Shown: positions 13,165 through 19,725 of the stretch, in pieces | How positions within the stretch are numbered: position 1 is the stretch's first letter | Layout: each line of letters begins with the position of its first letter | Origin: a virus | IMG/VR virus record: IMGVR_UViG_3300027759_003534 | Location: 1-64,000 of that record | Direction: 5' to 3' (one strand) | DNA: 64,000 nucleotides | The notes under the pieces: generated by a model | What the model was told of the DNA's origin: nothing | The model's input: the letters and a program-made list of their open reading frames with translations, nothing else | The model's database searches: none | Made by a program: the position numbers and the translations under genes

Positions 13165-15351
13165 TTACTTGTTCAATCCAGACAATTCTTTGAGCCGATC
13201 CAAAAAGCTCAAGTCTTTGGCCACTGGTTTCATTTTGCCTGAATGTCCATATTGTCCTGCTAGTGGACTAGCATCATCGGATCCCCAGCACTCTTCTACA
13301 CCATGCACTGGGCATGATTCGCCAGATTCGGTCATATTGCAAGTGGCATCATCAAACAAGTCAGCATCACTTTCGTTGGTTTCTTCTTTCTCTTTGCCGC
13401 CTAGTTTATCACCAATCATTTGACCAGCTGTTCCACCTAATGCTCCGCCTACTGCAGCACCAATTGGGCCGCCTACTGCTCCTAACGCACCGCCGGCCAA
13501 TGTTCCGACTGTGCCTCCGGCTAACTGACCTTTCCAACCTTCATCAGTTTCTTCGGCTTCGTCTGTTATGTTGTCGCCGGCTATAGCACCAAGTAGTCCT
13601 CCACCAATCGCGCCTGGTAATCCAAACAACGAGCCTCCTAATGCGGCACCACCAACGCCGCCGGCAAGGCCGCCAATAATACCTTCGTCGGTTTCTTCTG
13701 GAGCCATACCAGCTAGCTCACGCATTCTACTCTTTTCTTCAGCATAGTCACCGTGTTCAACGCTTTCGCGTTCCATGCCATAATCTTCGTCTGGGTTACC
13801 GCCCACAATGCCGCCACCTGACAAGTGACTTTCTAAATTTTTTGCTACCCACTCCATTGGATCGCCATCACGTGCCTTTTGTGTGCCGTAAGGAATCTCA
13901 CCAGCATCGTTCCAATAGTCAAACAGGGCATGATATAAGTCATCATCCAGATCACCTGCTTGTTCAAACTTCTTGACTTCGTGTTTGAAACGATTTAGGA
14001 TATGATCAATGGTTTCGCCTGTGGCATCCATTAGACGGCTTTCGTTCATGGGCTCAAGGTCAGCAGGGTTAGTTGCTTCTGGAGGATTCATTTCAGCTGT
14101 AGGATCAATGTTCAATTGTTCAATAACTTTACGCACATCTGGATCGTTGCTTAACATCTGCATGCGATCAAAGATGACTTGGCGAGCATCGGCATTGGCA
14201 TCGCGCTCGGCCAACTCTTCTAATCGATCAAACAATTCGTCGTCGCCTAGGAGATCATACAATTGTTCTGTGACATTAGTAGCGTCAGCGCCCACTGGCA
14301 AGTCTGTGCTCATGAGTTCAAGCAATTCTGCTTGTTTTTCTGGAGTGTCTGGCAACTGCCATGTTCCTTCTACCAGGCGCTCGGCCCAGGCTTCAAATAT
14401 GTTGGCTTCTTTCATTGCTGTTCCTTGTTGTTGTATTTTTGCCAGCAGGGGAAGTGCTGACTCAATTCTTGTGTCAATGCTTTGCTTGACAAAAAGATTT
14501 TTTAAACTTTCAATCACCACATCCTGCTCACTGATATTTGCAGGTTGCCATGATTCAAAATATTTTGTATATCCAGTACGAGTTCCAAGGCCTTTAAGAC
14601 TGCGTTGTAGATTTGATTGATACTGTTGTACCTGTTCTACTAGCTGTGCTGTGTCGCCTTCAAAAATTTGCCCTGTGTTGGCTCTACGGAAACGGCTTAG
14701 TACTGCTAATTCTGTGACCATTTCTGCAATGTGATTGCCACGTGGATCATAAGGGCGGCCACCTTGGCGTACATGCTCTAACATGGCACGGCCAGCAGTC
14801 AAGCTGGTAAATGGTAACTTGTAACGTTCACTATCAGCAGTTTCAATAAACAAACTTTCAATGTGACGGAAACGTGCATCACCTTCGCCAATGGTTTTCT
14901 TGTGGCGGATCATGAGTCTAGCTTCAGTTGCGGCGCCATTCCAACTGGTGGTACGGTTGCCTGTCCAGGATTCAAACAGGCCTTCTTTAATAGCAGCTTG
15001 ACCTTGCATGCTGTAACGCAGACGATTCAAGTTCTTGATGCCAAAACTCATAAAATTACGAGTGGCAAAATTCTTCAATTGTTCAAGGAAAGCAAACCAG
15101 TCATTTTTGTCATCACCTTCCATGCTGCGACCCACATTGTCGCTACAGTAAATTTCAAGGTCATTGTCATTGCCCAGCATGACGACTACTGTGCCATAAT
15201 CTTTGCCCGATCTAGCACGGAAATCAAAACTGAATATTTCAGCTTCTGCAGGGTCTGGTGCAGGACGGCCTGAACTGTCCAACATTTCTGGGTCAAAATC
15301 TCTGCTGATCAATAGATCAAATAGTTTGCGAGCGGGTGTAATATCTGCCAT
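13165..15351 (-). CDS. Large hypothetical (probable virion/internal head) protein with glycine-zipper segments
   Basis: 728 aa. Two GG.AGG..GA..G zipper stretches near the C-terminus separated by acidic EETDEG motifs. Late-type promoter TAAATA at 15359-15364. Confidence 0.6.
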   Translation of the reverse strand: MADITPARKLFDLLISRDFDPEMLDSSGRPAPDPAEAEIFSFDFRARSGKDYGTVVVMLGNDNDLEIYCSDNVGRSMEGDDKNDWFAFLEQLKNFATRNFMSFGIKNLNRLRYSMQGQAAIKEGLFESWTGNRTTSWNGAATEARLMIRHKKTIGEGDARFRHIESLFIETADSERYKLPFTSLTAGRAMLEHVRQGGRPYDPRGNHIAEMVTELAVLSRFRRANTGQIFEGDTAQLVEQVQQYQSNLQRSLKGLGTRTGYTKYFESWQPANISEQDVVIESLKNLFVKQSIDTRIESALPLLAKIQQQGTAMKEANIFEAWAERLVEGTWQLPDTPEKQAELLELMSTDLPVGADATNVTEQLYDLLGDDELFDRLEELAERDANADARQVIFDRMQMLSNDPDVRKVIEQLNIDPTAEMNPPEATNPADLEPMNESRLMDATGETIDHILNRFKHEVKKFEQAGDLDDDLYHALFDYWNDAGEIPYGTQKARDGDPMEWVAKNLESHLSGGGIVGGNPDEDYGMERESVEHGDYAEEKSRMRELAGMAPEETDEGIIGGLAGGVGGAALGGSLFGLPGAIGGGLLGAIAGDNITDEAEETDEGWKGQLAGGTVGTLAGGALGAVGGPIGAAVGGALGGTAGQMIGDKLGGKEKEETNESDADLFDDATCNMTESGESCPVHGVEECWGSDDASPLAGQYGHSGKMKPVAKDLSFLDRLKELSGLNK

Positions 15352-15372
15352 GGTCTATTATTTATCGCATTA

Positions 15373-16482
15373 CTATCGCATTACACTGATGAAAGGCATG
15401 GGGGCAATTATAGCATCTCCGTGATCTCTCAGCTGATTATCAATGGTGGTATCGTAGGTTTGTAACAGTTGCATCATACGTACATTTAGCAGGGTAGCCA
15501 TGACCAAATCGTCAGTTTCCCCAGGTTTTGCCGCATAACTTACGCCATGTGCCACAAAGTTTTTGAGCTCGCTAACCAGGCTAGGACTGCGAATTTTCAT
15601 TTTTCCTGATTCTATTAAAGATTTAAGTTTGCTACAAGCAGTCAATTTATTTTTGTTAGTGGTGTTAAATCCTTTGCGATACCTACGACTTCCGCCAGCA
15701 CCGGCGTTGGGATCACTTAAAAAATAGCCCTGGATATTTTCTTCGCCATACTGAGAAATACTGATCAAGGCAGCTTCTCCAATGGTATTGTTCTCCACAC
15801 TGAAATAAACACTTTGTACGTCCTTGACTGTGTCAGTGATATGTTTGCAAATGTCTGCTAAGATACGCACCTGCTCAGGAATTGGTGTACGATTGTGTCG
15901 CCATTCTGCCACTTGTTCTGTAGTATTGGCTTCAAATACCTGGATAGCTGCTGGGTCGCCACCAGTGCCAAGGCTGGGATCCAAGGATACCACATAGGTT
16001 CGGCCAGCACGAGGAGTTTGGAACCAGCGTACTTGACCGGTTCTGTACAAGGGTTCGTGTCCTTGTAGATCTATCAGTTTAGTTGGGGCAATAAGTGTTT
16101 CATCATTTATAATAAATTCACAGTTTGAAACTAAAATATCATTGGCAAAAAATCTACGATTATTTTTTACATTTAACAAATCATATACAGTACTGGTACT
16201 ATCTAGTGTAACACTTACTACTTTTTGCAATCCTGATGCAGTGTATATTTGTGTGCCAACTCGAAGTTGACTAACTGGAATCATATCAAACTTGTTGGTA
16301 TAAATTTTATGATCCAAGGTAGCTTTGATAGAGGTATTGGTCAATTGTAATAAGGCTATCTGTTTTGACCCTTTATCAAGTAATCCTTCAAAATCACTCC
16401 AGCCAGTATCAGTTAGTACTTGTAATCCTAAATTATTTTCTAGTAAGTCTGCCACGAGCAAATCCTTTAGGTTGTTGGTCAA
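15373..16482 (-). CDS. 17: Split intein C-fragment fused to terminase large subunit C-terminal (nuclease) half
   Basis: Intein block B TLDH, block F VYDLLNV, terminal VSN|CEF at 16123/16122. Then TerL nuclease motifs VSLDPSLGTGGD, VENNTIG and DDLVMA. No ATG: start is TTG 16482 or GTG 16455 (AAGGA 7 nt upstream). Confidence 0.92.
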   Translation of the reverse strand: MTNNLKDLLVADLLENNLGLQVLTDTGWSDFEGLLDKGSKQIALLQLTNTSIKATLDHKIYTNKFDMIPVSQLRVGTQIYTASGLQKVVSVTLDSTSTVYDLLNVKNNRRFFANDILVSNCEFIINDETLIAPTKLIDLQGHEPLYRTGQVRWFQTPRAGRTYVVSLDPSLGTGGDPAAIQVFEANTTEQVAEWRHNRTPIPEQVRILADICKHITDTVKDVQSVYFSVENNTIGEAALISISQYGEENIQGYFLSDPNAGAGGSRRYRKGFNTTNKNKLTACSKLKSLIESGKMKIRSPSLVSELKNFVAHGVSYAAKPGETDDLVMATLLNVRMMQLLQTYDTTIDNQLRDHGDAIIAPMPFISVMR

Positions 16483-16972
16483 CTACAAAATATTTTTCTT
16501 CAACGCCGTTGTTATACCAGGCCTTACCCGTGGCTGCACCAATTTTACCCTTGCTATTTTTACTAATATTGGCATTTCGGATAGGATCAGAATATACAGC
16601 GGCCATTTTTTCTTTATATTCTGTAGTGGATCTCATTTTTTCTTTGGTTGCTCGTTCTTCAGCTGACCATTTAGTGCCTTTCTTGCGTCCACCTACACCT
16701 GGGCGTTTAACACCTCTGTTAGGTGCCGGCTTTCCAAACATTGGATTTTTGTTTCCTTTTTTGCCTTCTGATAACAAAGTGTATATAATTTCAGCGTGGG
16801 GCATGATGCCTGCAAGACCAAGCCATGCTACTTTGTCTTGAGTATGCCCGTGTGTTTCATATAATAACCGATGTGCTTCTGCATGTTCTTCTACAGTAAG
16901 TTCTACAAGATTAGATGGGTCGTTGGATCCGCCCATGTATTTAGGAATAATATGATGTTTATGTTTTTTCAT
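16433..16972 (-). mobile_element. Free-standing HNH homing endonuclease between the terminase halves
   Basis: HKHHIIPKYMGGSNDPSNLVELTVEEHAEAH (beta-beta-alpha-metal), NUMOD3-like KGNKNPMFGK, C-terminal WYNNG...GF.RGR. Own TAAATA motif at 16978-16983. Confidence 0.88.
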
Positions 16973-16976
16973 AAAC

Positions 16977-17912
16977 TTATTTAGTTGTCATTGATGATAA
17001 ACTCAGCATTTCTTTTAATTCATTGATAGTTTTTTTAAATATTTTTCCAGAACAATCTTTAAGAGTTAACACTGAATCTGGTGATAGACAACCCATCTCT
17101 CGACGGAAGCGGTCTTCGCCTAGCTGTGCTCGCTGTGCTATAGCCCAGGCTTCGTCACGATCTGGATGTTCATTCCAAAAACTACGGAATGCTTTGAATC
17201 CGTTGACCCCTACTGCGGTTGGATTGCCATAGCTGTCCTCGCACTTGTTGGCGCCTTTCCATAGTAGAGCAAATTGATCTTCGTCTGAGTTTGGTGTTGA
17301 TGTAATAATACATTTACCACCAGTGGCCAAGGTAGGACTAATGGAAGTCCAGAATTCACTGGCCACACCGGGGCGTACAAACGCAAACTCGTCAGCGTAC
17401 AGCAAGGATAGACTCATACCACGACCAGTATTTTCTGTGGTTGTCGCTGATACAATACGGCTGCCGTTTTCAAAGTCCAAGTTACCTTTGTTGTAACTGG
17501 TCACGCCTGCACGGATAAAATCTGGACAATCCTCGTAGGCATATCTGATACGTTGCATGATCTCTTGAGAACCAGTGTACTTGTGAGCTGCAATAAGGAT
17601 TGTGGAATCTGGTACAAACATAGCGTACCATAACAAGTAACCAGCGGCACTGGTACTCTTACCTGTTTGTCGCGGCATCATTGAGATTGAAAAACGATTT
17701 TCGTGGTAAACATCAATCAGGCGTTTTTGATAATCATAGGGATGATACATCATCTTGCCTTGAGTTGGGTGTTGTATATAAAAATAGTTGTCCATAAAAT
17801 ACGCCGGTCCGGACACAGGATCAGCACATTTTACAAACTCTGCTAACTGATCGTCAGTAAAGGTTGTATTTTTGTAAGGAGTTTTAACTAGATTTAATTG
17901 ATCTTTACTCAT
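16977..17912 (-). CDS. 17: Terminase large subunit N-terminal (ATPase) half fused to a 37-aa split intein N-fragment
   Basis: Walker A PRQTGKST, Walker B LLYADEFAF, TSTPN, RFRREMG|CLSPDS. Intein Cys1 codon at 17090-17088. Confidence 0.93.
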   Translation of the reverse strand: MSKDQLNLVKTPYKNTTFTDDQLAEFVKCADPVSGPAYFMDNYFYIQHPTQGKMMYHPYDYQKRLIDVYHENRFSISMMPRQTGKSTSAAGYLLWYAMFVPDSTILIAAHKYTGSQEIMQRIRYAYEDCPDFIRAGVTSYNKGNLDFENGSRIVSATTTENTGRGMSLSLLYADEFAFVRPGVASEFWTSISPTLATGGKCIITSTPNSDEDQFALLWKGANKCEDSYGNPTAVGVNGFKAFRSFWNEHPDRDEAWAIAQRAQLGEDRFRREMGCLSPDSVLTLKDCSGKIFKKTINELKEMLSLSSMTTK

Positions 17913-17913
17913 G

Positions 17914-19038
17914 TTAAATTAACTTGTAAATTTCTGGCCATAACTTTTTAAATTGGCCTGTTTGATCTGTGTGATATGTATTTTCAATTTCTACTATATG
18001 GTCGTGTAAACCTGATCTTAGATCATCGTTACCACTAACAATGTGTTGTACATTTTCAAAAAATTGACGCTCATTGTCTAAAGCAATGTTGGCTTTTAAT
18101 AAATTTTCAATCTCGTTACGTGCCAGTTGTGCGATTTCTGGGCCTAATTTTACAGGATCTAAATAATCAGGTTGATATAAACTTTGCCAGTGTATTGTTA
18201 AATTTTGTTCTCTGGCAAAGTTGGTAAGTTCAATCACACGAGTAGCATTGTACAAATTGTAAACTGCATGTATGCCGCCCCATTGACCTTTTTGCATAAG
18301 ATTCTGTATGATATCAAGATTTTTTTCTAATAATGCCCAGGATCCGCCGTGGCGAACATATTCAAAATGTGATCCTATATTATCAAAACTCATTGACCAG
18401 CCAACTTTGGGCCTGTTGATTAACTTGCTGAATACTCGATTGTTATCTAACTCAACATTCATGTTAGTAATCAACGTAACCAGACAATCTTCAGGAATCA
18501 CATCAAGTAGCCGAGTATTTTCAGGTAAGAGCAAGGGTTCGCCGCCAACTAGTACCACTTCTTTGATGCTTGATTTGTGTGTTTCTAAATAATCACACAC
18601 TTGTTCATAGTAGGGTCGTGCTCCAGACTTGAACGGAATATGTTTAAGAGCTGCCCATTTTGAACTGCATTTGTCACCACAATAGTTACAGCTGAGATTA
18701 CAAGTGGTATTCCAGCGTACATCAACTATCACCGGCTGATGTTCAGTTAAACTGGCTGTGGTAGGATCAAACTCAGGACTGACATTGTTGTGCCAGTCTC
18801 GTTCACTGCGCCCGTAGCGTTCTGATTGCACACAATTGTAACAATATTTTGCATGTGGTTGTCCTTGACTGATACTTTGCCTAATCTCCTGCATAACAGG
18901 CCCATGTAAGATTTGTTCAATAGTTTGAGTGTTGAGATTGCCCAACATGTTAGGATCGCCGGCACAGCAGGTTTTAACGTCACCGTTTGGGTTGATATGT
19001 AGGCCGCGCCATGGAGCGGCGCAATAAAAATTGCTCAT
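17914..19038 (-). CDS. Radical SAM enzyme 4
   Basis: CNLSCNYC...CSSKW, LVGGEPL, ITN; N-terminal YCAAPW..CC..C..C. Confidence 0.88.
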
Positions 19039-19658
19039 ACAGTAATTATGAGTGTTTTGAGCTTACAGTTATTAAAATGCCATCGTTTAGCATTACTTGA
19101 ATCAGCTGTTGTTTGGCAATGTGGGCAAGTTAAAAGTTTTCTAGTTTTTGTATGCGGGCCCGTTGGCTGTCTCATTTTAGATAAGGCTTCTTCACTATGG
19201 GTCTTGCCCGCAAATGTTCCAGGTTTGCCAAAGCGAGGATTTAGTTCTCCAACAAGCCTGCCTTTCATACATTCAGATTGTTCGGGTCGTTTTTTTCCAG
19301 TTAGCATCTTGCTAAATTCTGGACGCTTTCTGCCATACAGAGGAGATTCTTCACCTTTCTTTGCTATGCGTCCGGATGCCCCGTCACCCCCGTCTGTCTT
19401 GTTTAACAGAATGCCGGTGTTAATGTCTTTACGGCCCCACCATTGTATAAGTCTACGCTCAATGGCAAATGCACCAATTTCAGTTAAATTAGATTCAAGT
19501 ATTATTATTTTGCTACTGTCCTTTGGAACAGTAATATTATGTTTTTCAACTGCCCTGATATCTTTGCCCTTACCTATATAATAAGGTGTCAGGTTAGACT
19601 TTCGTAGATAAGCATAAACATAATAACCAGATGGTGGGTGTTTTTTGTTAAATATCAT
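19035..19658 (-). mobile_element. Free-standing GIY-YIG homing endonuclease with NUMOD3 repeats
   Basis: YYVYAY..., PYYIGKG...R, E.RLI..WGR, N.TDGGDG, GE.NP.FGK, HSEE...KM, CPHC. Start ATG 19658 has SD AAGGAG 8 nt upstream. Confidence 0.88.
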
Positions 19659-19666
19659 TGCTGGCA

Positions 19667-19725
19667 CTCCTTTACAGTGTTAGAGTAGTTGGATGTTGAC
19701 GCATCGCGAACTACACCTTTATTTA
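19667..19725 (-). promoter_or_regulatory. Late-type promoter, bulged hairpin and SD leader of the second GIY-YIG gene
   Basis: TAAATA at 19720-19725; GTAGTT/AACTAC outer stem (19685-19714) with inner GATG/CATC stem; AAGGAG at 19667-19672. Confidence 0.6.

Follow-up and report, generated by a model that had tools for sequence, protein, structure and literature searches.

A putatively trans-spliced terminase in an uncultured jumbo phage: a fractured terL gene with a free-standing HNH gene between its intein halves

How does a phage come by an intact large terminase subunit (TerL) when the gene for it is broken into two separate reading frames and the gene for an endonuclease lies between them? 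The question is raised by positions 15373-17912, minus strand, of a 64,000-nucleotide stretch of viral DNA (IMG/VR record IMGVR_UViG_3300027759_003534, positions 1 to 64,000), which we refer to as the window. Here the N-terminal piece of terL ends in the short N-terminal half of an intein (IntN), the C-terminal piece begins with the long C-terminal half (IntC), and a free-standing HNH gene fills the slot between them. The explanation that we hold to be very probable as a whole is that terL has been fractured by an atypically split intein, that the two TerL pieces would be joined after translation by protein trans-splicing, and that IntN, the HNH gene and IntC form a cassette of 968 bp mobilised by the HNH endonuclease; within this explanation, the part of the HNH protein as mobiliser appears to be the weaker step. 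The host belongs to an uncultured clade of jumbo phages and would be a T4-like phage of roughly 340-370 kb; 59 of the 62 crude calls of open reading frames (ORFs) in the window lie on the minus strand, as do all parts of the locus:

17091-17912, minus strand: terL N-extein with the packaging ATPase domain, ending ...FRREMG; 274 codons, Terminase_6N, 59% identity to the TerL of phage PA5oct
16980-17090, minus strand: IntN, beginning with Cys1 and block A (CLSPDSVLTL); 37 codons, stop codon TAA at 16977-16979
16978-16983, minus strand: TAAATA motif, a candidate cassette-borne promoter; overlaps the IntN stop, 5 nucleotides (nt) before the HNH ATG
16433-16972, minus strand: free-standing HNH homing-endonuclease gene; 179 amino acids (aa), PHROG matches
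16463-16467, minus strand: AAGGA, Shine-Dalgarno sequence for IntC; 7 nt before GTG 16455, within the HNH 3' end
16123-16455, minus strand: IntC, with block B TLDH and block F VYDLLNV, ending ...ILVSN; 111 codons, 23-nt overlap with the HNH 3' end
15373-16122, minus strand: terL C-extein with the nuclease domain, beginning with Cys+1 (CEFIINDE...); 249 codons and stop, Terminase_6C

The two terL pieces and the intein halves between them

The ORF listing gives three ORFs in this region, and the offsets of 940 and 517 nt between the starts of the terL-N, HNH and IntC ORFs place them in three different frames. The first (16977-17912, 311 aa) matches Pfam Terminase_6N (E-value (E) 2.6e-13), and the last, which runs from a TTG as a 369-aa ORF (15373-16482), matches Terminase_6C over its residues 166-331 (E 6e-7); together with the PHROG matches of the middle ORF, this bears out the gene order and the three frames of an initial annotation of the locus. 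Equally reproduced were its 37-aa IntN with the Cys1 codon starting at 17090 and, with the Cys+1 codon starting at 16122, its RREMG-CEF junction and a deduced spliced product of 523 aa (a hyphen marks the splice junction here and below).

The junction itself can be read from intein-free relatives. Aligned with the uninterrupted TerL of the Pseudomonas jumbo phage PA5oct, the deduced spliced protein is 52% identical and the junction is ungapped (FRREMG-CEFI in the window, FRREHEVEFI in PA5oct). A much closer allele is present in an IMG/VR contig (L008; related loci and genomes are given by our identifiers where they have to be told apart), in which the two terL parts, 96% identical to the window in the N-extein and 98% in the C-extein, abut seamlessly in a single frame. 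The Cys at position +1 is native to 62 of the 64 intein-free alleles found (FRREM[D/G]-CEFII), and every related locus with an intein at this site continues with CEF after it; the site lies in the TerL hinge that connects the ATPase domain to the nuclease domain. Two further phages, Salmonella phage Munch and Xanthomonas phage XaC1, seemed to offer a TerL-N match running into IntN; their TerL is contiguous with no room for an intein, and both were rejected.

IntN consists of a core of about 30 aa and a tail of 7-8 aa that reaches into the motif upstream of the HNH gene. Related IntN sequences (n = 16) are 30-37 aa long, share the core and begin with Cys in every case. Whereas IntN holds block A alone, IntC holds blocks B (TLDH) and F (VYDLLNV) and ends in an Asn, after which Cys+1 opens the extein. 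Across 26 diverged IntC sequences there is no variation at the Thr and His of block B, the Asp of block F or the C-terminal Asn, so that the IntC blocks initially read from the window (TLDH, VYDL and ...VSN-CEF) are present with their catalytic residues conserved. By sequence, the element has the attributes of a class-1 intein, namely a Cys1 nucleophile, TxxH in block B and a C-terminal Asn with Cys at +1.

Searched against PDB as a single sequence, IntC finds VidaL as its best match (6vgv, E 8e-4), and a profile of seven IntC sequences matches both VidaL (6vgv) and CatC (6dsl_B, aligned over CatC residues 13 to 111) with E 8.7e-11. VidaL is naturally atypically split and has an ultra-short IntN. 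CatC is the C-terminal half of Cat, an engineered consensus of the AceL-TerL and GOS-TerL inteins (PMC11766414), and both the profile match and the sizes of the two halves agree with the initial assignment of the element to the AceL/GOS-TerL type.

The fold was computed on a contiguous homologue and not on the two chains of the window. In this homologue (L098:2037-2432, also P0030; 132 aa), IntN and IntC are linked by two residues exactly at the break point of the window, and the IntC part is 63% identical to the window IntC. The alignment behind the prediction consisted of IntC rows only, a mixed IntN/IntC alignment made with MAFFT having been dropped because it laid IntN pieces on the IntC region. 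The predicted structure is all-beta and a complete Hedgehog/intein (HINT) domain, with a confidence score (pLDDT) of 94.6, and its best Foldseek matches in PDB are all inteins (VidaL, with a template-modelling (TM) score of 0.87, gp41-1, RecA and DnaB). The IntN part contributes two initial strands with a short helix, and the loop that comes next is where the break lies.

One point had to be corrected. Read from TTG 16482, IntC would have 120 aa, but this codon directly follows a stop codon and is not conserved in relatives. The column of GTG 16455, on the other hand, holds GTG or ATG in the relatives, with a stop immediately upstream in one of them (L009), and in most relatives this start is preceded, at a spacing of 7 nt, by (G/A)AAGGA or GAGGG within the 3'-terminal part of the endonuclease gene. 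On the evidence of this start column in the relatives and of the conserved AAGGA before it, we let IntC begin at GTG 16455 and take it to be 111 aa and the ORF 360 aa long, which fits the lengths of 357-360 aa given by gene callers for more than 100 homologues.

The HNH gene and the movement of the cassette

The HNH protein matches PHROG 655 ('homing endonuclease', E 5e-17) and PHROG 12434 ('HNH', E 7e-8). The motif HH..P..GG..N..L..H...H is present at residues 6-35, within an N-terminal nuclease domain (about residues 1-66) that is followed by a putative DNA-binding module (about 67-179). We compared the cassette with that of a related locus (L006), which is carried by a complete relative of 337,119 bp with terminal repeats (G001). 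The synonymous divergence (pS) is 0.16-0.31 in IntN, HNH and IntC and 0.72, a saturated value, in the exteins, and nucleotide identity is 60-85% outside and 88-98% inside the cassette, with a step at the cassette borders. The low pS of the cassette together with this step indicates that the two host genes had diverged long before they came to share it, the pattern to be expected if the cassette spreads by homing or some comparable lateral route; the mobility of the cassette that the initial annotation had suggested is borne out to this extent, as a movement relative to the host gene. The ratio of nonsynonymous to synonymous divergence (pN/pS) is 0.30 in IntN, 0.12-0.14 in HNH and 0.04 in IntC (exteins 0.02-0.20), and since the three cassette values are 0.30, 0.14 and 0.04 we conclude that all three products are under purifying selection. 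This, with the match to PHROG 655, also upholds the HNH ORF as a real endonuclease gene, and the cassette as a whole would seem to be a working, laterally moving unit.

The initial annotation had further proposed that the HNH gene carries a late promoter of its own, and this idea gains support. Of 23 relatives with the HNH gene, nearly all have the hexamer TAAATA at a distance of 4-5 nt upstream of its ATG, while the flanks and the IntN ends diverge. In the window, 18 of its 48 copies lie within 60 nt upstream of an ORF start on the same strand, against about 3% expected, which is a 12-fold enrichment. The canonical T4 late promoter TATAAATA is present in the 64 kb in one copy, fewer than by chance; with this sequence almost absent, the 'late promoter' of the initial annotation can only be the shorter TAAATA. 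TAAATA is likely to be the late-promoter core of the phage in the window, and its conserved spacing amid diverged flanks supports a cassette-borne regulatory element. Counts of sigma-70 promoters and intrinsic terminators in 15200-18100 were not above those in shuffled sequences. Examples of TAAATA copies near gene starts on the minus strand are found at 15359, 22433, 26079, 35173, 48618 and 62403.

Two scans of IMG/VR gave loci with a related intein at the same terL site, and these differ in what lies between the halves. The layout of the window, with an HNH gene, is present in about 28 independent contigs with 45-97% identity in IntC, HNH thereby being the commonest endonuclease type in the clade. 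In other loci the slot is filled by a GIY-YIG-like gene (n = 4) or by a DUF7487 gene of 338-348 aa (n = 4). One locus on a 323-kb contig (L125:2562-4571) has a split intein without an endonuclease gene, with 6 nt between the IntN stop and the IntC ATG, and a contiguous intein at the hinge site is found in a single locus, L098.

The GIY-YIG-like gene is a chimera. In L101:2879-3500 its C-terminal half shares 58% identity over 98 aa with the corresponding half of the window HNH protein, and its GIY-YIG-like domain, at the N-terminus, shares 61% identity over 82 aa with the product of a separate window gene at 19035-19667. The same chimeric endonuclease is present in L101, L102, L105 and L107, with weak Pfam support for GIY-YIG (E 0.025). 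As the halves of the L101 protein match two separate genes of the window, nuclease domains have been swapped on one DNA-binding module. The DUF7487 gene is a third type (L103:2507-3523 and L122:2468-3514; Pfam DUF7487, E 3e-35). Its product (L103) found no meaningful match in PDB by sequence, and a PD...EVK-like C-terminal motif seen by eye is the sole basis on which it may correspond to the 'Vsr-like' family of Dassa et al. (2009).

Other sites in terL are occupied as well. In L098:2-3173 one terL carries two inteins, one at the hinge and one at the Walker B site, the latter atypically split (...SLLY-C..., resuming ...HSHQ-CDEFAFV) around a 291-aa ORF that has no Pfam family; the Walker B site is also occupied in L064, L075, L097, L116, L119, L126, L135 and L146. 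In more distant terminases (L133-L165), IntC-like domains of 28-33% identity directly precede TerL residue ~86 and would mark a third site for an intein, this one in the TerL ATPase domain.

Proteins that join IntC to TerL-C make up at least 182 clusters (at 90% identity) in the protein database. The IntC profile matches 609 clusters (at 50% identity) at E up to 1e-10, and in about half of the best 150 of these the match begins within the first ~20 residues, which suggests that additional N-terminal forms of IntC exist. Of 50,697 phage genomes on deposit, an IntC match is present in only two, Providencia phage PSTRCR_127 and Serratia phage 92A1, both of them isolates. In these records (L001, MW358927.1, and L004, OR088902.1) the terL pieces and the endonuclease are labelled 'hypothetical protein' or 'terminase large subunit', and not as intein-bearing.

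Upstream of the locus in the window lies a radical SAM gene (17914-19038, minus strand) that ends one base before the terL start and has an N-terminal SPASM-like match (Pfam SPASM, residues 6-69, E 4e-12).

The proposed pathway and its rivals

The pathway that we propose begins with a mini-intein in the TerL hinge, which would have been cut after its first ~30 residues by the free-standing HNH gene. Two polypeptides would be made, TerL(1-274)-IntN(37) and, from GTG 16455, IntC(111)-TerL(249); the short IntN would dock on the long IntC and complete the HINT fold. Trans-splicing by the class-1 route, with an acyl shift at Cys1, attack by Cys+1 and cyclisation of Asn111, would then release TerL as a chain of 523 aa, its native sequence restored at the junction (...RREMG-CEFII...). 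The HNH protein, probably expressed from its own conserved TAAATA element, would cut the intein-free terL of co-infecting relatives, and repair would copy the whole 968-bp cassette.

Several observations weigh against this pathway. The Pfam HNH match (E 1e-3, 19.4 bits) is below the 21.4-bit gathering cut-off, no Shine-Dalgarno sequence is visible before the HNH gene, and its TAAATA stands only 5 nt from the ATG whereas the usual distance from this motif to an ORF start in the window is 17-27 nt. A transcript from this copy would in consequence have almost no leader, and with T4-like geometry it would be predicted to start at or next to the AUG. On the side of the intein, IntN alone found no match in PDB, Ser takes the place of His as the penultimate residue of the intein, and the His usually seen in block F is missing. 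Finally, the record from which the window is taken (182,566 bp) is about 49% complete, which leaves some room for a second terL in this genome.

The rival that survives best, although we consider it unlikely, accepts the splicing and holds that the HNH protein no longer mobilises the cassette, being inactive, domesticated or retargeted, and that the cassette has spread by ordinary recombination. The split intein that persists without an endonuclease gene in L125 speaks for it, as does the lack of a Shine-Dalgarno sequence before the HNH gene. However, the HNH gene remains under constraint (pN/pS 0.12-0.14), the identity step at the borders is sharp and the cassette pS low, and near-identical phages differ in the presence of the cassette, as the comparison with L008 demonstrates. 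Moreover, three endonuclease types occupy the same slot, two of them sharing one DNA-binding module, and their presence there points to repeated targeting of the site.

A second rival accepts the fracture and denies the splicing: the TerL pieces would work as a non-covalent complex in which the intein halves serve only as a tether. Split genes that function without splicing are documented, the example being nrdA/mobE of phage Aeh1 (PMC2677866; PMC3045599), and the absence of the penultimate His and the block F His could be read in the same way. Yet the 26 diverged sequences all keep the nucleophiles and the Thr and His of block B, IntC has a pN/pS of 0.04, the closest characterised relatives (Cat and VidaL) actively trans-splice, and the intein-free alleles keep the Cys that serves as +1. 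The inteins end in ...SN or ...KN throughout the clade, and CatC likewise lacks the block F His in the profile alignment; because this lack is clade-wide and shared with CatC, we regard it as a family trait and not as decay. The non-covalent complex is on these grounds improbable.

It is more improbable still that the fractured terL is a decaying relic and that another, intact terL packages the DNA. The incompleteness of the record leaves space for such a gene, but the record holds a single terL ATPase match, the fractured terL is the only one in the complete genome of G001, and the pN/pS of the exteins is 0.02-0.20.

The least probable rival of all, with hardly any standing, takes the three frames for assembly indels or recoding and the true product for one contiguous intein with a nested HNH domain, as is known in general from HNH-containing contiguous inteins, but about 28 independent assemblies keep separate ORFs with frame combinations and IntN stop positions that vary among related loci, which assembly indels cannot explain, conserved features of their own mark the beginning of the HNH gene (ATG and upstream motif) and of IntC (Shine-Dalgarno sequence and GTG or ATG), a stop stands directly upstream of IntC in L009, the split persists without an endonuclease in L125, and Rfam, searched at E up to 1 over 14500-19000, gave no match and hence no sign of a group I intron. 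The refutation by assembly indels or an intron that the initial annotation had envisaged thus did not materialise, and the fractured, trans-spliced terL with an HNH-mobilised cassette remains our preferred explanation.

Significance and comparison with known systems

For phage biology, the locus would be one more well-supported case of an essential packaging motor that depends on protein trans-splicing, and its cassette acts like a mobile unit among jumbo phages. The initial annotation had presented it as a new member of a valued class; its rarity and novelty were overstated, given the at least 182 protein clusters and the many viral contigs that share the layout. Fractured genes have been known since 2009 and are common in metagenomes, and the novelty of the window's element is low. 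For protein engineering, natural split inteins with a short IntN are sought after, and the clade offers many diverged Cys1/Cys+1 variants to mine, with an IntN core of about 30 aa and C-termini in ...SN or ...KN; the gain is incremental, since the family consensus Cat already exists.

Of wider use may be the range of states found at this single site, on which the gene-breaking model of Dassa et al. could conveniently be tested with natural material. We propose, as a plausible if on balance somewhat doubtful combination, that the hinge site preserves the whole pathway of gene fracture (empty, contiguous mini-intein, split with any of three interchangeable endonucleases, split without endonuclease), and that a conserved TAAATA promoter moves together with the HNH gene, giving it leaderless late expression.

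Fractured genes were defined by Dassa et al. in 2009 (PMC2677866). Like them, the locus in the window consists of two host ORFs on the same strand that carry intein halves, with a free-standing endonuclease ORF between. The endonucleases in the fractured loci of that study were GIY-YIG and Vsr-like, and an HNH fracture was merely predicted; the endonuclease of the window is HNH. The study also included one terminase locus, from Lake Gatun, with an atypical break position and a C-part of 122 aa in which motif N1 alone is missing (PMC2677866); its intein is the one now called GOS-TerL.

As regards the intein, the resemblance to AceL-TerL, GOS-TerL and Cat extends to several features: the host protein is TerL, the IntN is short (25-37 aa) with block A only, the IntC is long (104-122 aa) with blocks B, F and G, and position +1 is Cys. 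Both natural members have been shown to trans-splice, GOS-TerL with halves of 37/115 aa and Ser1/Cys+1, AceL-TerL with 25/104 aa and Cys1/Cys+1 (PMC11766414). The window shares the 37-aa IntN of the former (PMC11766414) and, unlike its Ser1, the Cys1 of the latter. It is set apart from all three by its occurrence in an uncultured jumbo-phage clade and by the HNH gene between the halves, and its similarity to Cat is distant (E 0.16 as a single sequence), with an ending in ...VSN that has Ser where CatC has His. VidaL (6vgv), the best PDB match of IntC by sequence and of the contiguous homologue by fold, is only ~22% identical.

Among sequenced isolates, PSTRCR_127 and 92A1 (Straboviridae) have their break in the same TerL hinge, with an IntN of ~35 aa after ...KQEH and an IntC of 111 aa that ends in ...THN and is 33% identical to that of the window. 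They differ in having a GIY-YIG gene (SegE-like, NUMOD3) between the halves, in the presence of the penultimate His, and in a junction that lies one residue off in the extein alignment. Outside the inteins, the parallel is nrdA of Aeh1, where an HNH gene, mobE, reportedly with late regulation of its own, lies between the two halves of an essential phage gene; there, unlike in the window, no intein is involved and the halves assemble non-covalently (PMC2677866). Judged by its sequence, the element in the window would belong to a known kind, the fractured genes, and within it to the atypically split TerL inteins of the AceL/GOS-TerL type.

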